From a virus (lineage: Duplodnaviria; Caudoviricetes): a stretch of 64,000 nucleotides of DNA. A program made the translations under genes and the position numbers. Shown piece by piece: positions 477 to 57,756 of the stretch; the stretch's first letter is position 1; the number at the start of each line of letters is the position of its first letter. The DNA is taken from positions 10,564 to 74,563 of the IMG/VR virus record IMGVR_UViG_3300033121_001334; one strand, given 5' to 3'. Under the pieces are notes generated by a model. The model searched no databases. It saw only the letters and a list, made by a program, of their open reading frames with translations, and was not told the origin of the DNA.

Positions 477-1235
477 ATGAATCAGTGTAGAAAATGCAAC
501 AATCAAATACCAGCAACCGTTAGAATAAACAATAAGAGACGAAATCTTTGCGGAAGAAAGTTTTGCCTTGAATGCAGTCCTTTTGGTTCTCACAATACAA
601 AACCAGATGATCCTGCAAGAAAATCTGTTTATGGACAGGAAAGATACAAGAAAAATCCTTATTCAAACTGGGCTGAGCATGCAAAAGAGTCTCATAGAAA
701 AAGTACCGTAAACCGAGCAGCAAAACTAAAGCAGAAAATTGTGAATCTGAAAGGCGGTAAATGCTCTTTATGCCAGAACTCAAGCATAGACGTTTTGACT
801 TTTCATCACAGAAATAGAGAAGACAAGTTATTCAATCTTGACAAAAGTTCATTGAGGTCTTACTCGTTAGAAGAAATAGCAAAAGAAATAGAAAAATGCG
901 ATCTTCTGTGTTTTAATTGCCACATGGAAACTGAAGCCAAACACGAAGCAGTAAAAGGCTCAGGAAAGCAGAATGTTAGAGGATGGGAAAGAAAGCAAAA
1001 AGCAATTGAAGAATTGGGAGGCAATTGTTCACAATGTAAATATGACAAATGCATAAGATCTCTGTCTTTCCATCACAGAGATCCATCTACAAAATCTTTC
1101 CCTTTAGATATTAGAGCCTTCAATGGTTATTCTTGGGAAAAACTACAAAACGAAATCAACAAGTGCGATCTGCTTTGTTTGAACTGTCATCGAAGCCTAG
1201 AGAACTCTCTAAGAAAAAGCAGGTATCTGCAATAA
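477..1235 (+). CDS. Free-standing HNH endonuclease with two tandem HNH/Zn modules
   Basis: Two copies of CxxC...FHH...C..LCxNCH; the stop abuts the 3' end of tRNA-Ile2. Confidence 0.85.
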   Translation: MNQCRKCNNQIPATVRINNKRRNLCGRKFCLECSPFGSHNTKPDDPARKSVYGQERYKKNPYSNWAEHAKESHRKSTVNRAAKLKQKIVNLKGGKCSLCQNSSIDVLTFHHRNREDKLFNLDKSSLRSYSLEEIAKEIEKCDLLCFNCHMETEAKHEAVKGSGKQNVRGWERKQKAIEELGGNCSQCKYDKCIRSLSFHHRDPSTKSFPLDIRAFNGYSWEKLQNEINKCDLLCLNCHRSLENSLRKSRYLQ

Positions 1236-1522
1236 TGGGCAAACCGGGATTCGAACCCAGAACCTAGCGATTATGCCTACTGACTTGAGTTTCCCCAAGA
1301 GTCGGACTGTACCTTCACCCGTTTCACTTCCTTACGGAAGAAAAGTTAGGGTGGCTGCCGTCCAGTCTCTACACCTTCGCTTTTCAGCGCTTGGCTCGGG
1401 ATTGGCGTGAGTCTTTCGACCTTTAGCTTTCCCCGACTTTGACAGCTTACTCATACAACATTCCTATTGTATGGACCCAAGTTTTCTTAAGTCGCTTGCT
1501 CTAACCGTTGAGCTATTTGCCC
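1236..1522 (-). tRNA. trnI: tRNA-Ile2 (CAU) interrupted by a group I intron after U33
   Basis: Exon 1 (1490-1522) GGGCAAATAGCTCAACGGTTAGAGCAAGCGACT joined to exon 2 (1236-1275) CATAATCGCTAGGTTCTGGGTTCGAATCCCGGTTTGCCCA gives a full cloverleaf; D and anticodon arms are Ile2-like rather than Met-like. Confidence 0.85.
1276..1489 (-). ncRNA. Group I intron (IC3-like), 214 nt, no ORF
   Basis: P1 GACU|UAAG-AAAA-CUUGGGUC with U.G at the splice site; AAAGUCGGGGAAAGC...GCCAAUCCCGAGCCAAG core; P7 GAGACUG/CAGUC; terminal G. Confidence 0.9.
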
Positions 1523-8827: not shown

Positions 8828-8893
8828 AATCCACCTCCATAGATGGATTACAATTGGCAATCGAATTATCCTTCTTCGTCTACCAATTCCTAA

Positions 8894-9212
8894 TGGACTG
8901 ACCGGGACTTGAACCCGGATGGTGTTTGAATACCTGCGGATTTTCTTACCACTTCAGCTTTCGCCGACTGCCCTTTTCCATCAAGGTACTTGGGGTCTTA
9001 CGTTTGTGGTCTGGACTGTACCTTCATCCGTTCTGCTTCTTACGAAGAGTTTTGGATGACCCAATTGCAGTCTCTACGGCTTCCTTTGTAGGTTTGCCTC
9101 GGAATTGGGATTTTACACCGTTTCCCGATACTCTGGGTTTCATTTACAAGATTACTCTTGTAACGCTCAAATTGTCTAAGTCCGCTGCGTCTGCCAATTT
9201 CGCCATCAGTCC
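8894..9212 (-). tRNA. trnL: tRNA-Leu (UAA), class II, interrupted by a group I intron after U34
   Basis: Exon 1 (9178-9212) GGACTGATGGCGAAATTGGCAGACGCAGCGGACTT plus exon 2 (8894-8944) AAAATCCGCAGG...GGTTCAAGTCCCGGTCAGTCCA. Confidence 0.9.
8945..9177 (-). ncRNA. Group I intron, 233 nt, no ORF
   Basis: P1 CUU|AGA-CAA-UUUGAG with U.G at the splice site; GUAGAGACUG and GAAGGUACAGUCC form P7; terminal G; same position as the cyanobacterial/plastid trnL(UAA) intron. Confidence 0.9.
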
Positions 9213-9219
9213 AATTATT

Positions 9220-9826: not shown

Positions 9827-9828
9827 AA

Positions 9829-9902
9829 TAGCTCCAGAGAGATTCGAACTCTCAACCTTACCGCCTTAAACGGTTTGCCTCTGCCGATTGAGCTATGGAG
9901 CC
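9829..9902 (-). tRNA. trnL: tRNA with Leu anticodon UAA and a short variable loop
   Basis: GGCTCCA/TGGAGCT acceptor, ACCG-TTTAAGG-CGGT, GAGAG-TTCGAAT-CTCTC, A73. Confidence 0.75.
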
Positions 9903-9918
9903 AAAGTTTAGTTCTAAA

Positions 9919-10952: not shown

Positions 10953-11469
10953 GAATCATCGAATCAAGCAAGAAAGCTGTGGAGTTACCCTTTGGTTCGC
11001 CCCAGCCCTCATTGTTGCGGTCATAAGTACAAGAAGCAGCCTTGGCAATCTGATGAAGCCTAAACGGAGCTTCATGACAAATCAGAATATCAGGCTTGTT
11101 GTTGATGTAGTCATCAAGAGCAAGCTCCATAGCCTCCCGATTAAGTTGCTCGTCAGGCCACCAATCAACTCCCTCTTTTCTCCACTTCTTATCAACAGAA
11201 TCAGCGCCAGCAACAATGTACAGCCCATTCCACATGCCATACTCAACGGCATACTGCGGATGCGCTCTGCAAATGGCTGGATTGTCATGATTTCCGCGAA
11301 AGAAACGAAAGTTCGCAGGCAGCTTTGGTTCTCGACCAGGAAAGCCAATACCAACGTCGCCAAGACCAAGAACAGTCTTGTTCGCGTACTTATCGCAGAC
11401 GTTCTTGAGCATGGACCATTTCCCATGAACGTCGCCAACAATCACAATATCATTCAGGCTTGGATTCAT
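10810..11469 (-). CDS. Calcineurin-like metallophosphoesterase
   Basis: GDVHG, GDVG, GNHD and HGHWH motifs. Confidence 0.9.
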   Translation of the reverse strand: MNPSLNDIVIVGDVHGKWSMLKNVCDKYANKTVLGLGDVGIGFPGREPKLPANFRFFRGNHDNPAICRAHPQYAVEYGMWNGLYIVAGADSVDKKWRKEGVDWWPDEQLNREAMELALDDYINNKPDILICHEAPFRLHQIAKAASCTYDRNNEGWGEPKGNSTAFLLDSMIHAHMPRILVHGHWHNPLIYKQRGCVFISLGELEALDLEEAIRYYKIK

Positions 11470-12979
11470 CTCTCAAAACTTTCTGGAACTGATACAGCGC
11501 CGCTCCTTCTAAACACTGCTTTGCAAGACCAAACAAAACGCTCAATCTGTCAAGCGTTAGTCCGGCTCTCTTTGCAATACCGCCCAGAAGAAGCTCTCGC
11601 TGTTTTTCGTCCAAAAGCTGAGAGGTGGTGTCAATCGCCACCAAAATGCGCAAGAATCCAACAAGCTCGTCTTCTTCCAACGGAGGGTCAATCTCTTCGT
11701 CATTGCCCAAAAAATCGGTCAGCTTCACAAGCTCGCAATCCTGATAAGGGTTTGCGATGTAGTTAGCGACCTCTTCCGTGAAAGAAGTATCAACGCCAAT
11801 GAAGCCGCCGTCCACCTTATGAATATCAAGATGAATAACCTGACCCGGATTATCAGGGTCAGCTACCTCGATAGTCTTGATGTACTGGCTAATCTTCATG
11901 ATTCGTCTTCTGTTCCGCCGTCGCCAAAGATTCGCTCTCGAACCCTGTCATGGATAGCATAGTCAACCTCAAAGAAGGCGTCAACTTGCCGTCCCATTTC
12001 AAGAGCTTTTTCGATTTCATTTGCGCCGCTATTGGAAAGCACAATCTTCTTGCCGGTAATCCTTTCAAGGGAAGCGATAACCCGCTTCATACCTTCGACA
12101 GGATCAACATTGGCAATCGTCCTGAACGACGGAGCCAGGTCCGCAAATGATGTTGCGTAAACTTGATTGAACGCAAGGTTTTCTCGGTATTCCGTCAGCG
12201 CCCAAGAGTTCGGCGTTGCGGAAACACCATAACGATAGCTCAAGGTCTCGCCCTTGCTGCGAGGCCCTTCAGACTTGCGAGTTTTCCAGTCGTCCGAAAG
12301 GTGACAAAGCACCTTTTCGTTCTCGGCTTGCTTCGGTAAATCAACTTTCATATGCTACATATAGTAGCAGAAAGTTTAGTCTTGGCAAACCAAACTGTGG
12401 TTTCTCAAAGAACTAGACACACTCCAACGACGAGAGTTTCTCGTTCATGTCTACCTGAACGCCTCTGTCTTCAAGAAACTGAACAAGGTCGTATAACTCT
12501 TTGTACGAGTCATGACCTAAAGATTCATTCATAAATAAAAGACCAGACCAAACAGCTTTGCCGCTACGAGGAACCTTGATCTCTTTTCCGTCGAGACAGA
12601 TAGTTGACGGATAAGTTGTGAAGCCAAAGTACACAAAAGCGCCGTTGCTAAGTTCAACCGCAAATACAGCAATACTTTGCGGATTCACAATCACAATCTT
12701 GTCATTGTGAAGCATAATCCCTTGAGACAAAAGCTTTGCGTCAAGCAAGGGATCTTCTGAACCCTCAACCAGGCACTCTTCTCCATAAAAGCGATGAATG
12801 GGGCCTACCCTAATCGCCTTATCCTGTGCTTGTTGTCGCAGGGCAACAAGATGAGCATACATCTCCTTCTTGTCGCAAACAAGCTCAAAATGAAGAGCGC
12901 CAGAATCAGTCTGATGATTCTTGAGTCGCTCGGTTTCCATAAACAATTCCCCTGAACGAACTGGACTGATTGTTGTCAT
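11450..12979 (-). other. Three hypothetical CDS (11450-11899, 11896-12351, 12413-12979)
   Basis: Tandem ORFs with overlapping start/stop codons; no family recognised. Confidence 0.7.
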
Positions 12980-36686: not shown

Positions 36687-37958
36687 TTACCCTTTCAAGA
36701 CAGCAACAGGCAGAAGTTCGATTTGGATATCAACCAAGTCCTTTTGGTTGTTCATAACAACGTCAATGCTTTTATATGCGCTTCCAAGTTCGTCATGAGC
36801 TTCTTGAACTCCATAAAGCTCAACAGAACCAAGCTGCGAAGCCTGCGAAGGGTCAAGCCCGTCAGCAATACGCTTCTTAGCGGTTGTTCTACTGAAGTTT
36901 CGACCCGCACCATGCGAACAAGAGTTGAAGCTGTCTGGGTTTTCCTTACCCTTTACAATGTAGCTCTTGCTGCACATCGAACCAGGAATAATTCCAACAG
37001 TCGTCTTGCGAGCGAGCGTTGCTCCTTTGCGATGAACCCATACATTCTCACCATGATGATGTTCAATCGTTGCGTAGTTATGGTGAATGTTGATAATGTC
37101 CTTGAGAGCAGCCGTCTGGTGATATTGCTCTCTAACAGCTTCCTGACAACATATCATCATGAGTTTTCTGTTTACAAGAGCGTAATCTTGCGCAGCCAAA
37201 AGGCTTGCAATGTACCATTGTCCTTCGTCAGAATCAGCGGGCAAGAATGCTAGTTCTTCATTAGGAAGGCGAGTGTAGTATCTCTTGCAGGTCTTGACGG
37301 CAAGGTGATGGAACTTCTTGGCAAGCTGAGCGCCAAAGCCTCTGGAACCGCTATGAAGCATGAACCAGGCGTTGCCTTCTGCGTCTTGCTGAAGCTCAAT
37401 GAAGTGGTTTCCGCCACCAAGAGTTCCTATTTGTATTTTTGCTCTGCACCATGCAGGATAATCAAGAGTCTTACAGAATTCTTTTGCTTCCTCAACCTTT
37501 TTCTCGACATCAGCAATATGGTCAATAATACGCTTATGACCAAGCCAGAGATCGCTTCTAGAGCGGTTTTTACCTTCGCCAACAGGGACATCAGCGGCAA
37601 TGGCTGTCATGAGCTTCTTGATATCAAGGTCTGCGACTTTGATACCTGAATTCCATGCACACATTCCGCACCCGATATCCACCCCGACCGCATTTGGTGA
37701 AACGGCATTATGAAGCGGCAGGACGCAGCCGACTGGGACTCCAAAACCTGTATGAGCGTCGGGCATGAGCGCAACATGGCGATAGACGCAAGGAAGGCGA
37801 GCAGCTTCGCTGACTTGACGAATTGCGCCTTCTTCTAGGTTGAGGATGGGCTTGCCGGTTTCTGAATCGACATCCTTCGTCCAGCACTTGACAGGAACGC
37901 CGCCAGTTTGCTCGGGCGGGATTACGACGGGTCCGAGTTTTTCTTCAATGGTTGACAT
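36687..37958 (-). CDS. rtcB: RtcB RNA 3'-phosphate/5'-OH ligase
   Basis: MPDAHTG, VGVDIGCG, GTLGGGNHFIE, HSGSRG, NIHHNYA, HRKGAT, SCSHGAGR, AYKSI; start at 37958, 7 nt after TATAAT. Confidence 0.96.
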   Translation of the reverse strand: MSTIEEKLGPVVIPPEQTGGVPVKCWTKDVDSETGKPILNLEEGAIRQVSEAARLPCVYRHVALMPDAHTGFGVPVGCVLPLHNAVSPNAVGVDIGCGMCAWNSGIKVADLDIKKLMTAIAADVPVGEGKNRSRSDLWLGHKRIIDHIADVEKKVEEAKEFCKTLDYPAWCRAKIQIGTLGGGNHFIELQQDAEGNAWFMLHSGSRGFGAQLAKKFHHLAVKTCKRYYTRLPNEELAFLPADSDEGQWYIASLLAAQDYALVNRKLMMICCQEAVREQYHQTAALKDIINIHHNYATIEHHHGENVWVHRKGATLARKTTVGIIPGSMCSKSYIVKGKENPDSFNSCSHGAGRNFSRTTAKKRIADGLDPSQASQLGSVELYGVQEAHDELGSAYKSIDVVMNNQKDLVDIQIELLPVAVLKG

Positions 37959-38025
37959 GATGTGATTATAGGATAAAAAATGGCACAAAATCAAACGTGT
38001 CTAAAGTGTTTTCATTCAAAACTTG

Positions 38026-52718: not shown

Positions 52719-53318
52719 TTATCCAACAGGGGTTAGGAGTTTCGGACTGAAATGGAAGATTGAGTCTTCCCCGATCTGGACTTCCTTGTCTTCCTTTGCG
52801 CGAGTTTCGTCAAGGACTCGGTTGCCTTGACTGTCCTTGATTATAGGCGCAGTATAGGTTGTGGCAAGAGCCTTACCGTCTCTTGAGTAAGAAAGCATGA
52901 TCGAAAAGCCCTCAATAGACGAAGGCATTTCCCGAACGCTGCCATATTTCTCTAGATTCTTGCTATAGTCTTCAATTGTCTTTTCTTCTGTGTACCAACA
53001 CTCGCAGATCTGAACGACAGCGATAGGTTTGAATTCAGCGCATGCTCTTTGAATAAGAGAAGCGATAAGATTCTTGCTTGGCAATCTCTGGTATAGAAAA
53101 CTTGGAATGTCAACAATTTGATTATCTTTCAAAACGAGCTTAAAGAGCATTGGTAGTTCTTCCTTAGAAACTTTGAGATATGACTTCATGGTTTCAACTG
53201 AAGAACTAATAATGTTTTTGAAAAGCTCTGTATGTTTCTTTGTTGGGTCCAACATATTACACCCCGATTGTTTCAGGTTCAGTTTCTTCGACTTCCTGAG
53301 CAACAGGAGAAGCAGCAA
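52719..53318 (-). CDS. Hypothetical protein
   Basis: ORF downstream of gyrA; true start probably MLDPTKK. Confidence 0.65.
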   Translation of the reverse strand: MLLLLLLRKSKKLNLKQSGCNMLDPTKKHTELFKNIISSSVETMKSYLKVSKEELPMLFKLVLKDNQIVDIPSFLYQRLPSKNLIASLIQRACAEFKPIAVVQICECWYTEEKTIEDYSKNLEKYGSVREMPSSIEGFSIMLSYSRDGKALATTYTAPIIKDSQGNRVLDETRAKEDKEVQIGEDSIFHFSPKLLTPVG

Positions 53319-55821
53319 CAGCTTCGTCTCCGTCGCTAAGCTTCATGATTCGAACGCCATTAGTGCCTCTGTGAGTAATGCGGATTGAATCAGCGGGAAT
53401 GCGAATCATCTGTCCCTGTTTGGTAATAAACACAATGTCTTTACCGTTCTTGACAGGAATGACTCCAACGCTTTTTCCTGTCTTGGACTCGATATTCATA
53501 TCAATGCGACCCTTGCCGCCTCTGGATTGTTGATGAATCTTTCCTCCGTCAACGGGAGCCACAAGATACTCGTCTACGTCGGTTCTCTTACCAAACCCCT
53601 TATTGGTAAAAGTCATCATTGTAAGTCCGCTTTCGCTTGTTACAGTATGACCTTCGTTGTCAAACTTCATGGGTACAACGATCCCGCCAACAACATAATC
53701 GCTTGTTCCCAATTTCATACTTGTAACACCAAGCGAAGAGCGACCGCCAATGCGAACCTCAAGTTCGCTAAATCGAATAGACAGGCCTTCATGAGTAACA
53801 AGAAGCAGGTCGTCAATCCCCTTTGATGGAAGAACCGCAATTATCTTGTCGCCGTCCTTGACTTTCGTTGCAATGACTCCGCCGCGATTGATACTGGCGT
53901 ATTGCTTCAAAGCGGCTCTCTTCACAAGACCATTGCGGCTAATGAAGTTCAAGAAAACATGCTGCTTTCCCAGTCCCTTGATAGGAAGGTAAGCGCAGAT
54001 CTTTTCTCCGTCTTTTAGATTGATGAAATTAATGATCGGGCGGCCTCTGGCGGTTCTGCTGGCTTCGGGAAGCTCGTAGACCTTGATAGCGAACGCTCTA
54101 CCAGTGTCGGTAAAGCAAAGCAGGTCGTCGTGCGTGGAAGCAGAGAACATAGACTGCATATAAAGATCTTCTCCGGTGTTACCAGAGTTGACTCCAACGC
54201 CGCCGCGACCGCGCTGACGGTATTCCTTGAGAGGAACCCGCTTAATGCAATCGTCAGTCGTAATGCAAACAACAACGTCTTCGACCGGAATCAGGTCTGC
54301 ATGGCTAAGATTCGTAACTTCGCCAGAAATTTCCGTTCTACGCTCGTCGCCAAGTCGCTGAGCAAGTTCTTTCTGTTCCTGAACGATAATCTTCATGATT
54401 TCGTTCCGGTCGCCAAGAATCTTGCGAAGATACGCAACTCGATCTTCTTTCTTCTTCTTTTCGTCGTTCAGCGCGTTCTGCTCAAGCTTCGTCAGCTTGG
54501 CAAGCGTAATAGCAAGAACAGCCTTCGCTTGGCGCTCGGTTCGAACGATCTTAGCTTCGATAAGCTTTTGACCAGCAACTTCAGGATTCTCGCTTGCGCG
54601 AATAATCTTGATTGCCTCGTCAATTCGTGTCGCAACAGAAATCAAACCCTCAAGAACCTCAATACGATCAAGAGAGTCAGAAAGCTCGGCGTTGAACTTA
54701 TTCGTCAGAACCTTCTCTCTGTGATCAATGAAGGCCTTGATCAAGAGAGTGATAGGAGCCTGAGCGTGAAGCTTCCCGTCAACAAGAACAGTTGAGTTGA
54801 CGGAATAGGTTGCTCTGAGGCAGGTATGCGAGAGAATCTGATTGAGGATAACCTGCGTATTACCGTTACGGCCAATCTCAACAACAACTCTCGTTCCGAT
54901 CTTGTTGGAAGAGTAGTTGGCGATATCAGAAAGACCGCTAATCTTGCCTTTCTCAACAAGGTCTTTGACTTCTTCTCGGAACTTTTCAGGAGCGCCGCCC
55001 TCAGGGAACTTAGTGATAATGATCTTATCATTACCCTTGGAGTCTTCCTCAATCTCGTAAATTCCTTCAATCTTGAGGGAACCTCGACCAGTTTGGTAAT
55101 ACTCAAGAACGCCGTCCTGTCCAAGAAGCTTACCGCCAGTTGGGAAGTCAGGACCGGGCATGATCTTGAGAACGTCGAGAGGAGTCATATTGGGGTTAGC
55201 AATAAACGCCTCAAAAACGTTTGCCAATTCTCGAAGATTGTGGGACGGGATATTGGTTGCATAACCAACGGCAATACCAGAACAGCCGTTAGCAAGCAAG
55301 TTCGGAAGCATTGCGGGAAGAACCGTTGGCTCGGTTCTCGAATCGTCATAGTTGCTCTTGTAGGGAACAACTCGATCAGAAAGGTCTTCGAGCAACGCTG
55401 CGCCAGCATGGGAGAGCCTTGCTTCTGTATAACGGTCAGCAGCGGGCGGGTCACCGTCAACTGAGCCGAAGTTACCTTGCGACTCAATGAGGGTTGTTCG
55501 CATGGTCCAAGGCTGCGCCATACCAACAAGCGTTCCATAAAGAGCGAGATTGCCGTGAGGATGGTAGTTACCCATCGTTTCACCAACAATCTTGGCGCAC
55601 TTCATATGCTTCTTGCCAGGACTCAGACCAAGCTGGTCCATCGCAAAAAGAATACGCCGCTGCGAAGGCTTCAAGCCGTCGCGAGCGTCAGGGATCGCTC
55701 GGTCTTCGATGACCTTATACGCATAGCGAGTGAAAGATCCGTCAAGAACCTGAAAGAACTCTTCTTTCAGGACAATATCAGGAGCTTCCGGTTCAATAGG
55801 TTGATTCTTTTTCTTCGACAT
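53257..55821 (-). CDS. gyrA: DNA gyrase subunit A
   Basis: RAIPDARDGLKPSQRR, YHPHG, AADRYTE catalytic Tyr, GyrA-box-like QRGRGGVG and a pinwheel CTD. Confidence 0.96.
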   Translation of the reverse strand: MSKKKNQPIEPEAPDIVLKEEFFQVLDGSFTRYAYKVIEDRAIPDARDGLKPSQRRILFAMDQLGLSPGKKHMKCAKIVGETMGNYHPHGNLALYGTLVGMAQPWTMRTTLIESQGNFGSVDGDPPAADRYTEARLSHAGAALLEDLSDRVVPYKSNYDDSRTEPTVLPAMLPNLLANGCSGIAVGYATNIPSHNLRELANVFEAFIANPNMTPLDVLKIMPGPDFPTGGKLLGQDGVLEYYQTGRGSLKIEGIYEIEEDSKGNDKIIITKFPEGGAPEKFREEVKDLVEKGKISGLSDIANYSSNKIGTRVVVEIGRNGNTQVILNQILSHTCLRATYSVNSTVLVDGKLHAQAPITLLIKAFIDHREKVLTNKFNAELSDSLDRIEVLEGLISVATRIDEAIKIIRASENPEVAGQKLIEAKIVRTERQAKAVLAITLAKLTKLEQNALNDEKKKKEDRVAYLRKILGDRNEIMKIIVQEQKELAQRLGDERRTEISGEVTNLSHADLIPVEDVVVCITTDDCIKRVPLKEYRQRGRGGVGVNSGNTGEDLYMQSMFSASTHDDLLCFTDTGRAFAIKVYELPEASRTARGRPIINFINLKDGEKICAYLPIKGLGKQHVFLNFISRNGLVKRAALKQYASINRGGVIATKVKDGDKIIAVLPSKGIDDLLLVTHEGLSIRFSELEVRIGGRSSLGVTSMKLGTSDYVVGGIVVPMKFDNEGHTVTSESGLTMMTFTNKGFGKRTDVDEYLVAPVDGGKIHQQSRGGKGRIDMNIESKTGKSVGVIPVKNGKDIVFITKQGQMIRIPADSIRITHRGTNGVRIMKLSDGDEAVAASPVAQEVEETEPETIGV

Positions 55822-55824
55822 CTA

Positions 55825-57756
55825 TCAATCCTTGATTGGGACAAGTCTGTTATTGACATTGTTTGTAATATGCTGACGACGAAGCTGTACGTTCTTACCC
55901 ATGAGAACAGTAAGAATGCGCTCTGCTTCCGCTGCGTCGTCCATAGTGACCTGCAAGAGCCTTCTCTTACCCTTGCGCATGGTCGTCTCAGCAAGCTGTT
56001 CAGCTTCCATTTCACCAAGACCCTTGAACCGCTTGATATCAGGTTTTGAACTAAGCTTAGCCAGGTTTTCCTGTAACTCGGTATCGCTCCAACAGTAAAT
56101 CGGGTCGCCTTTTTTCTCAATCATGTAGAGCGGAGCCTGAGCAATATAGACATGACCGTGATCGATCAACGGACGCATGAAACGATAGAAGAAAGTCAAC
56201 AGGAGAGTGCGGATATGATATCCGTCGTCGTCGGCGTCCGACATGATGATGATTTTGCCATACTTCAACTTGCTAAGATCAAACTGGTCTCTTACACCAG
56301 TACCAATACAAAGCATAAGGTTGATTATTTCGTCGTTCTTGAAAAGGTCGTTCAACGTACACTTCTCGGCGTTGATGATCTTGCCTTTATTAGACAAGAT
56401 TGCCTGAACTTCGCTATCTCTTCCGCCGCTAGCAGAACCAGCAGCCGAATCACCCTCGACGATGAAAAGCTCATTAACTTTTGTATCTCCGCTACGACAG
56501 TCTCGGAGTTTGCCAGGGATTCTACCGCTGCTTCCCAGGAAGCTTTTCTTCTTGAGGGCAGAAGCTGCGTCTTTAGCCGCTTTTCTTGCTCGTTGAGCAA
56601 GTTGCGCTCTCTCGAAGATTTTGGAAAGAACCTTGGGATTACGATCCAGGTAGTCTGACAAGATTTCGGAAGTTATATTACTAACAACAGCCTCAGCCTC
56701 AACGGTTCCAAGTTTAGCCTTTGTTTGACCAACAAACTGAGGCTGGGGAAGACGAATGCTTACAATAGCATTCAAGCCTTCCTGAATGTCTCGGCCTTCA
56801 AGCGGGTCGTCCTTATCTTTCAACAAACCAGCAGCCGACGAAAGTTTGTTGATGGTTCTTGTAAGAGAAGCTCTGAAACCTGAAAGATGCGTGCCGCCGT
56901 CAGTTGTATAGATGTTGTTGGCGTAAGAGAGAATAAGGCTATCGTCTTCGTCGGTCCAAGAGACAGCAATTTCGACCTGCATTCCGTCAGAGTTCTTTTG
57001 TCCGTAAATCGGAACGTCAGGATAAATTCCGTTCTTGTTCTGAAGAAGATAGAGAACGTAATCGCCGATGCCTCCGTCAAACTTGAAATCCTGCTTCGTT
57101 CCTGTTGCTTTGTTTTCAAAAGCAATTCGCAGACCTCTGTTGAGGAAGGCGGTTTCTCTCAACCTGCGAATAATGTCATTCTCGTCAAGCTTGACGCCAT
57201 GTTTGAAGATCTGGATATCGGCGCGCCAGATTGACTTCGTACCAGTTGGCTTTTCGCCCTTTTCGAGCTTGCGAACCTTCTTGACATCTCCAAGCGGCTC
57301 GCCTCGGCTATATTCCTGACGGTAGAGGCTACCGTCTCGATGAACCTCAACAGTCATCTTATCAGACAAAGCGTTTACGCAAGAAGCGCCAACGCCATGC
57401 AAACCACCAGAAGCAACATATCCGCTGGAATCGGAAGTCATCTTTCCGCCAGCATGAAGGACGGTCATTGCAACTTCCAGCGAAGACTTATGCTCCGTTG
57501 GATGCATGTCAACAGGAATGCCTCGCCCGTCGTCTTCTACAGAGATTGTTTCTCCGTCAGCCTCAATCGTGACATGGATGTTTTTTGCATGCCCCGCCAT
57601 TGCTTCGTCAACAGAGTTATCCAGGATTTCCCAGATAAGATGGTGAAGGCCTTTCTTATCGGTATCACCGATGTACATCGCGGGACGCCAACGCACCCCC
57701 TCTAAACCCTTAAGGACTTTGATTTGATTTCCAGAATATCCGCTTGATTGAGTCAT
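55825..57756 (-). CDS. gyrB: DNA gyrase subunit B
   Basis: RPAMYIG, EILDNSVDE, GLHGVGAS, EGDSAAG, DADDDG, RFKGLGEM. Confidence 0.96.
   Translation of the reverse strand: MTQSSGYSGNQIKVLKGLEGVRWRPAMYIGDTDKKGLHHLIWEILDNSVDEAMAGHAKNIHVTIEADGETISVEDDGRGIPVDMHPTEHKSSLEVAMTVLHAGGKMTSDSSGYVASGGLHGVGASCVNALSDKMTVEVHRDGSLYRQEYSRGEPLGDVKKVRKLEKGEKPTGTKSIWRADIQIFKHGVKLDENDIIRRLRETAFLNRGLRIAFENKATGTKQDFKFDGGIGDYVLYLLQNKNGIYPDVPIYGQKNSDGMQVEIAVSWTDEDDSLILSYANNIYTTDGGTHLSGFRASLTRTINKLSSAAGLLKDKDDPLEGRDIQEGLNAIVSIRLPQPQFVGQTKAKLGTVEAEAVVSNITSEILSDYLDRNPKVLSKIFERAQLAQRARKAAKDAASALKKKSFLGSSGRIPGKLRDCRSGDTKVNELFIVEGDSAAGSASGGRDSEVQAILSNKGKIINAEKCTLNDLFKNDEIINLMLCIGTGVRDQFDLSKLKYGKIIIMSDADDDGYHIRTLLLTFFYRFMRPLIDHGHVYIAQAPLYMIEKKGDPIYCWSDTELQENLAKLSSKPDIKRFKGLGEMEAEQLAETTMRKGKRRLLQVTMDDAAEAERILTVLMGKNVQLRRQHITNNVNNRLVPIKD

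Follow-up and report, generated by a model that had tools for sequence, protein, structure and literature searches.

What interrupts a tRNA(CAU) gene on a viral contig, which tRNA do its two halves specify, and could the virus itself supply what that tRNA would need to read AUA codons? We addressed these questions in a stretch of 64,000 nt (hereafter the window), corresponding to positions 10564-74563 of a 74.6-kb IMG/VR record (IMGVR_UViG_3300033121_001334) classified as Caudoviricetes. In the reading that we prefer, and to which we assign a probability of roughly 70%, a compact, ORF-less, IC3-type intron that is predicted to self-splice splits an elongator-type tRNA(CAU) gene of a phage, most likely tRNA-Ile2, at U33|C34.

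The initial annotation had placed an ORF-less group I intron of 214 nt after U33 of a CAU tRNA. When introns were allowed (ARAGORN -i), ARAGORN returned one gene of 287 nt on the minus strand (1236-1522) whose anticodon loop is split by an insert of 214 nt; these are exactly the coordinates first given, and the site, the length and the lack of an ORF were all confirmed. The tRNA is 73 nt long (minus strand, 1522-1236) and is split between U33 and C34 by the insert at 1489-1276. Its 5' exon (positions 1-33; window 1490..1522, minus strand), delimited by ARAGORN -i and splice-site refinement, comprises the GGGCAAA acceptor strand, the D arm, the AGCGA stem strand, C32 and U33, and reads GGGCAAA-UA-GCUC...GAGC-A-AGCGA-CU. 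The 3' exon (positions 34-73; window 1236..1275, minus strand), taken from ARAGORN -i and the sequence, carries CAU, A37 and A38, the UCGCU strand, a 5-nt variable loop, the T arm, UUUGCCC and A73, and reads CAUAA-UCGCU-AGGUU-CUGGG-UUCGAAU-CCCGG-UUUGCCC-A; CCA is not encoded. Spliced together, the exons form a flawless 73-nt cloverleaf. The intron itself, IC3-like according to the Rfam model RF00028 and our alignment (1276..1489, minus strand), begins with U1489 and ends with omega-G1276, and no ORF longer than 45 aa overlaps it. This gene escapes detection by ARAGORN with default settings and by the Rfam tRNA model.

The exact insertion site was set according to the placement rule of Williams 2020 (bioRxiv 10.1101/2020.01.27.920355), that is, U or C at position -1 and G at omega. 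All eight placements within the loop were tested, and only one of the eight, U33|C34, combines U-1, omega-G and a 7-nt loop (CUCAUAA). ARAGORN -i shifts the insert by 3 nt in the 3' direction and therefore calls tRNA-Leu(UAA). Taken at face value, this output would make the gene a tRNA-Leu(UAA) with an insert after position 36, a reading to which we give virtually no weight. With that insertion point the intron would be preceded by A at -1 and would end in U, against the rules for group I introns, and the 5-nt variable loop means that the gene is not tRNA-Leu, as bacterial tRNA-Leu belongs to class II and has a long arm. The U33|C34 placement also has intronless counterparts: tRNAs in which the arm AGCGACU-CAU-AAUCGCU is contiguous were found in 99 IMG/VR stretches. 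On one metagenome contig (L344), an intronless tRNA with G3-C70 is identical to the 5' exon of the window over positions 8-33 and continues directly with CAUAAUCGCU, which matches the product expected of the predicted ligation.

Splice signals are in place at both ends of the intron. P1 (1474..1493, minus strand; from sequence and fold) pairs exon residues G30-U33 and intron UAAG with the internal guide CUUGGGUC across an AAAA loop. Its pairs are G1493-C1474, A-U, C-G, U1490.G1477, U1489.G1478, A-U, A-U and G1486-C1481, so that U33 (1490) forms a wobble pair with G1477 at the 5' splice site. The 8-bp P1 with a U.G splice pair, which had been described at the outset together with a terminal G, was thus recovered in full, and G1276 is indeed the last base of the intron. 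A covariance-model search (cmscan) matched RF00028 (Intron_gpI) at 1283-1498 on the minus strand with 61.2 bits, above the gathering score of 50 (E = 4.4e-13 for the window), which answers the check for a group I intron that the initial annotation had proposed.

Every helix of the catalytic core (1304..1446, minus strand) forms in the window sequence, bearing out the earlier description of the core as recognisable, and the core shows covariation in the viral intron family. Its helices are P3 (1446-1441/1359-1354), P4 (1436-1431/1401-1396), P5 (1427-1426/1406-1405), P6 (1395-1393/1375-1373), P6a (1389-1386/1381-1378), P7 with a bulged A1368 (1369 and 1367-1363/1309-1304) and P8 (1353-1349/1320-1316). 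They are followed by a P9 hairpin (1284..1299, minus strand; CUUGGG-GAAA-CUCAAG), identified from the RF00028 match and the fold, and then by UCAGUAGG, which ends in omega-G. The P3/P7 pseudoknot is present, as is the G-binding G-C pair beside the bulged A in P7. A minimum-free-energy fold of the single sequence gave P1, P2, P3, P5a, P6/P6a, P8 and P9 (z = -3.2). We further aligned 39 short viral tRNA introns, including this intron and a second one from the window that is described below. The intron of the tRNA(CAU) gene keeps 37 of the 37 invariant columns. RNAalifold recovered P2, P3, P4, P5, P6, P6a, P8 and P9 from the alignment, with compensatory changes in 31 of 41 predicted pairs. With P2 to P8 and the P7 pseudoknot imposed, standard base pairs occupied 95.0% of pair positions, versus 32-41% with slid partners; compensatory double changes affected 27 of 38 pairs, and none of 500 shuffles reached the observed values. 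The last P7 pair is a compensated G-C (GAGACUG/CAGUCC) in both introns of the window and A-U in 32 of 34 distinct sequences. The intron is a structurally intact member of the IC3 type, and its intact structure suggests that it would be catalytically active and able to splice.

One could argue instead that the intron is decaying and no longer able to splice, and that the tRNA is a pseudogene in a locus rich in selfish nucleases. Fragments of tRNAs and several HNH genes do occur on the contig, a degenerate piece resembling a 5' half lies just upstream (approximately 1620-1591), and the intron has no close relative that could reveal purifying selection on it. However, a score above the RF00028 gathering value, the retention of all invariant core positions and all helices with the P7 pair compensated, the perfect cloverleaf formed by the exons, and the intact U-1.G and omega-G all argue against decay, and we regard this explanation as very unlikely.

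Given an intact intron, the identity of the interrupted tRNA becomes the next question. The tRNA is not an initiator, because positions 1 and 72 are paired (G1-C72) and position 11 pairs as C11-G24. It has an elongator body with U12-A23 and the anticodon stem AGCGA/UCGCU, and lacks both A11-U24/G12-C23 and a GGG/CCC stem. According to Silva 2006 (PMC1635315), G3 or A3 with C70 or U70 marks tRNA-Ile(CAT), as Met and fMet carry C3-G70, and C4-G69 and C5-G68 occur often in Ile2; the separation of Met from Ile2 is nevertheless hard and lineage-dependent. In the acceptor stem of the tRNA studied here, G3-C70 and C4-G69 agree with these marks, whereas position 5 pairs with 68 as A-U, the state seen in E. 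coli tRNA-Met. The tRNA also has U12-A23, C29-G41, A37, A38 and A73, which together with C4-G69 reportedly make up the E. coli IleRS identity set that Nureki described in 1994. Furthermore, its arm AGCGA-CUCAUAA-UCGCU is the same as in E. coli tRNAs annotated as tRNA-Ile (PGAP), whereas E. coli metT and metU have the anticodon stem CAUCA/UGAUG, C3-G70 and U4-A69. Identity over the whole sequence does not discriminate (55/73 to E. coli tRNA-Ile(CAU) and 56/73 to E. coli metT), so the determinant positions carry the Ile2 call. On their strength the tRNA is quite probably Ile2 rather than elongator Met. The initial assignment to tRNA-Ile2(CAU) therefore holds for the CAU elongator body, G3-C70 and C4-G69, and is likely rather than proven in view of A5-U68 and the equal overall identity to Met.

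The same intron could alternatively reside in a gene for elongator tRNA-Met ('Met.2Ug' in Williams 2020), with TilS serving another tRNA. Such an arrangement has a precedent in the Met.2Ug seed of Williams 2020, and besides the near-equal overall identities and the lineage dependence noted by Silva 2006 (PMC1635315), the 5-68 pair (A5-U68) and the T arm GGUUCGAAUCC are similar to those of E. coli tRNA-Met. On the other hand, G3-C70 is reported as never occurring in Met or fMet (PMC1635315), C4-G69 and GCGA/UCGC fit Ile2 and differ from the corresponding pairs and stem of E. coli Met, and the arm shared with annotated tRNA-Ile points the same way. We consider a tRNA-Met host unlikely. If it were correct, the substrate of TilS would be the Ile2 of the host or a tRNA elsewhere in the unsampled 85% of the phage genome.

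With tRNA-Ile2 as the preferred host gene, the insertion site can be compared with the known classes. The classical bacterial tRNA introns fall into Leu.3Ug, Arg.5Ug, fMet.2Ug and Ile2.5Ug, to which 17 more classes were added by Williams 2020, whose seed alignment includes Gba28.Ile2.2Ug, Sba135.Met.2Ug and Aol6.Ile2.5Ug. Since the classical Ile2 class in that scheme is Ile2.5Ug, the Azoarcus-type intron lies after U36 (position 5). The window intron follows U33, and the earlier statement that its position is that of the Azoarcus tRNA-Ile(CAU) intron has to be withdrawn. Both are IC3 introns of approximately 200 nt that split a tRNA-Ile2 gene, and both have GNRA loops and a short P9. They differ in that the Azoarcus-type intron is inserted at CAU|AA and its guide pairs with CAU, whereas the guide of the window intron pairs with GACU; the Azoarcus type also has viral examples (e.g., L173). 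Position 2, U33|C34, is the site of the cyanobacterial tRNA-fMet intron and is already catalogued for bacterial Ile2. Like the bacterial Gba28.Ile2.2Ug, the window intron lies between loop positions 2 and 3 of tRNA-Ile2(CAU), has U-1.G and omega-G, is small and lacks an ORF. In contrast to the bacterial Ile2.2Ug introns, which come from bacterial assemblies, it sits on a huge-phage contig, has other P1, P2 and P9 sequences, and carries the 'GAGACUG/CAGUCC' variant of P7. With the cyanobacterial fMet.2Ug introns (Biniszkiewicz et al. 1994) it shares the CU|CAUAA site, the IC3 core and the G-C last P7 pair, and these introns are among its best-scoring relatives (e.g., L229, L241, L249 and L264). 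Their host, however, is an initiator tRNA with a mismatch at C1, A11-U24 and a GGG/CCC stem, as opposed to an elongator-type tRNA with G3-C70. The locus adds no new kind of mechanism.

The predicted course of maturation is as follows. A cluster of tRNA genes on the minus strand ends with this gene, which would be transcribed together with the rest of the cluster; a scan of the vicinity for promoter or strong terminator consensus sequences gave none. The intron would then fold, the guide and exon residues G30-U33 forming P1, and free guanosine would attack after U33 at the U.G wobble pair. Omega-G1276 would subsequently enter the G-site in P7 and the exons would be joined, with the predicted junction ...GCGACU|CAUAAUCGC... 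The product would be a 73-nt tRNA with the loop CUCAUAA, to which CCA would be added post-transcriptionally. As C34 sits in the anticodon loop only after splicing, lysidine formation by TilS and reading of AUA would have to follow splicing.

Is a suitable modifying enzyme available? A tilS gene in the same genome had been proposed, and a TilS-like tRNA(Ile)-lysidine synthetase gene does lie on the same contig (60752..61873, minus strand), with matches to PF01171, to TIGR02432 and to the N-domains of PDB entries. The match to PF01171 has an E-value of 1.1e-41 (Pfam), that to TIGR02432 scores 161.2 bits against a cut-off of 93.6, and the PP-loop motif SGGADS occupies residues 51-56 in the N-terminal domain; the true start is likely an ATG 60 nt into the ORF. 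The top PDB matches are three solved TilS proteins, 3A2K (3e-21), 1NI5 and 1WY5, all over the N-domain only. In the C-terminal portion of approximately 100 aa (about 270-373), the tRNA-binding domains represented by Pfam TilS and TilS_C gave no match at E <= 5, and the model of the full-length E. coli type of TilS scored 90.7 against a cut-off of 606. Annotated phage TilS genes, for example that of PA5oct, encode proteins with 26-35% identity to the TilS of the window. AUA accounts for 11.4 per 1000 codons and 18% of isoleucine codons in 93 ORFs of the contig. Since these ORFs use AUA and the contig holds both the tRNA and the TilS-like gene, both could serve phage translation. TilS would presumably act on the spliced tRNA(CAU), and AUA decoding could reasonably be supposed to be fully phage-supplied, although the contig represents only approximately 15% of the genome. 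In three further viral contigs that carry intron-split CAU tRNAs, the sequence available yielded no TilS; as each of these contigs is incomplete, this result carries little weight.

The virus-like context noted at the outset was borne out by several lines of evidence. The IMG/VR record is rated 15% complete by CheckV. The top matches of hypothetical proteins on the contig fall in an uncultured phage of 595 kb, in Lak megaphages and in jumbo phages, and its proteins match PHROG families, many of them PHROG-only. It has a dense tRNA array and encodes GyrA and GyrB, RtcB, methyltransferases and many HNH proteins. The contig is a fragment of a huge phage. That it might be a piece of a cellular genome or another mobile element, and the intron an ordinary bacterial Ile2.2Ug case, seems extremely unlikely to us. 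Bacterial Ile2.2Ug introns do exist, gyrase and TilS are typically cellular genes, and capsid, terminase and tail genes were not identified in the parts examined. Against this stand the viral classification by IMG/VR with its CheckV estimate, the huge phages as top matches of the hypothetical proteins, and the jumbo-phage-like combination of PHROG-only families, HNH genes, a dense tRNA array, methyltransferases and RtcB.

A second intron-split tRNA gene lies in the window at 8893-9213 on the minus strand (ARAGORN -i and alignment). It encodes tRNA-Leu(UAA) and is interrupted at U34|A35, the site of the classical Leu.3Ug class, by a group I intron of 233 nt. A local search with the Rfam model gave this intron 21.8 bits (E = 0.003), below the gathering score; the intron lines up well with those of the viral Leu.3Ug class, however, and its P9 region is enlarged. 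Leu(UAA).3Ug introns belong to the same family as the Ile2 intron of the window, and the copy at 8893-9213 shares the rare G-C P7 pair; they differ in tRNA and in site, and this copy has 60% global identity to the Ile2 intron. An intact tRNA-Leu(UAA) gene is also present, at 9828-9903. Default ARAGORN skipped both intron-split genes of the window. As standard tRNA finders miss such genes, the tRNA repertoires of phages, and with them arguments about codon supply, are undercounted.

[quoted passage not shown] Although phages have many tRNA genes, every phage group I intron then known lay in a protein-coding gene according to Hausner et al. 2014 (PMC3984707). The tRNA introns of Lak megaphages, stated to be the first in phage tRNAs, were called 'enigmatic' and left unclassified (Devoto et al. 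2019, PMC6784885), and our literature search turned up no account of group I introns in the tRNA genes of phages. They are nonetheless common in phages by our survey. A degenerate IC3 core pattern matched at least 116 stretches in IMG/VR, and at least 70 IMG/VR contigs have IC3 introns in tRNA genes (70 of 119 listed matches lie inside ARAGORN intron-tRNA calls; L105-L222). Among the matches listed, approximately 49 are Leu(UAA).3Ug, two are CAU.2 and two CAU.5, with Arg, Lys and others in addition. About 16 of the listed introns are 680-880 nt long, and introns of this length probably encode nucleases. Ten viral introns whose tRNAs at first sight read as tRNA-Ile(UAU) belong to Leu(UAA).3Ug, as the tRNA bodies are of class II, the tRNA-Leu kind, and the ARAGORN intron is 2 nt too short. 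A cultured example comes from the complete genome of Agrobacterium phage Atu_ph07 (490 kb, MF403008.1; L343), in which an unannotated tRNA-Leu(UAA) at approximately 112.9-113.25 kb has a 278-nt group I intron (48.9 bits, Rfam); the record has only a small 'hypothetical protein' there. Predicted self-splicing introns of the classical IC3 type are therefore frequent in the tRNA genes of large phages, as judged from their sequences, and go unannotated.

Relatives of the Ile2 intron itself are distant. Its closest global identities, 65-68%, are to introns of several tRNA types, and it is approximately 60% identical both to two other Ile2.2 introns (L105 and L329) and to the tRNA-Leu intron at 8893-9213; repeated independent insertion and long divergence would both fit these low values. 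A blastn search of GenBank phages for close relatives of the intron and tRNA returned only two short core matches, and a strict core pattern had no match in IMG/VR. A pattern for the 5' exon had no match in IMG/VR and one, intronless, in metagenomes, and the 3' exon had no match in E. coli genomes. A GTDB scan for the G-C variant of P7 recovered 120 loci, including approximately 48 Arg(CCU).5, 26 Leu.3 and 20 CAU.2. Cyanobacterial initiators make up most of the CAU.2 cases; the others are Ile2-like genes in Saccharibacteria and on a 12-kb contig binned into a Fimbriiglobus MAG (L329, DASSAT010000488.1). The latter has a tRNA(CAU) at 2423-2706 with a 211-nt intron at U33|C34; its exons are much like those of the window, and CCA is not encoded. 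The second viral Ile2.2 case is on an 85.7-kb IMG/VR contig (L105), where a CAU tRNA with G3-C70 (11776-12049, minus strand) carries a 200-nt intron at U33|C34 on which Rfam is silent at E < 0.01.

What might move these introns is suggested by the neighbouring genes. In the window, a free-standing HNH gene with two tandem CxxC..HH..CxxCH modules (477..1235, plus strand; phrog_2255 1.7e-47, phrog_3106 1.1e-37) encodes a protein of 252 aa; it is convergent with the tRNA(CAU) gene, and its stop codon abuts the 3' end of the tRNA. The double-HNH protein is probably either a mobility partner of the tRNA/intron locus or a neighbouring selfish element. No remnant of a tRNA 3' half was found beyond the HNH gene, at 1-476, and a 'replacement cassette' layout is therefore not evident. 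On the L105 contig, an HNH gene (11273-11713, minus strand) lies 63 nt downstream of the intron-split tRNA, and a second HNH nearby is 38-45% identical to the modules of the window. By a crude motif test, an ORF with an HNH motif lies within 1.5 kb of 7 of 38 viral tRNAs with short introns and 10 of 16 with long introns among the matches listed, versus 0 of 76 intronless viral CAU tRNAs and 0 of 81 bacterial intron-bearing tRNAs. Fisher's exact test gave p of approximately 3e-4, a statistic that ignores phage clade. This suggests that HNH nucleases, whether free-standing or encoded within introns, accompany tRNA introns in phages. Free-standing homing endonucleases are known in phages, for example F-CphI at cyanophage psbA and SegB in the tRNA cluster of T4. 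The window resembles these systems in having a free-standing HNH gene that abuts an ORF-less, intron-bearing gene, and differs from them in the unusual tandem double module and in being known from sequence alone.

A more speculative possibility, which we rate as improbable, is that the intron and the double-HNH gene form a collaborative unit. The nuclease would cut the anticodon-loop DNA of intronless tRNA-Ile2 genes in co-infecting phages or the host, the intron would protect the copy carried by the phage itself, and the phage TilS would confer a monopoly on AUA decoding during infection, with splicing gating lysidine formation. In any case, an intron-split Ile2 tRNA together with a phage TilS and a link to HNH nucleases could offer a bench system for intron mobility and for the order of tRNA maturation in phages.

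Several further features of the contig concern its RNA genes and enzymes. A degenerate piece like a tRNA 5' half (GGGCGAUUAGCUCAGCGGUUAGAG...), at 1591-1620 on the minus strand and approximately 70 nt upstream of the intron-bearing tRNA, resembles the 5' exon of that gene and is without a matching 3' half nearby. Upstream of the window, two tRNA calls were made on the minus strand at contig positions 8919-8996 and 8776-8846. One is an initiator-like CAU tRNA with A11-U24 and a U.U mismatch at 1-72, whose stem is not GGG/CCC; the other is an odd call whose anticodon loop is 8 nt long (UUCA). Genes for full-length GyrA and GyrB occupy 53257-57756 on the minus strand of the window. An RtcB-type RNA ligase gene (36687-37994, minus strand; phrog_1075, 1.5e-111) lies on the same fragment as the intron-split tRNAs; RtcB is dispensable for group I splicing and relevant to tRNA repair.
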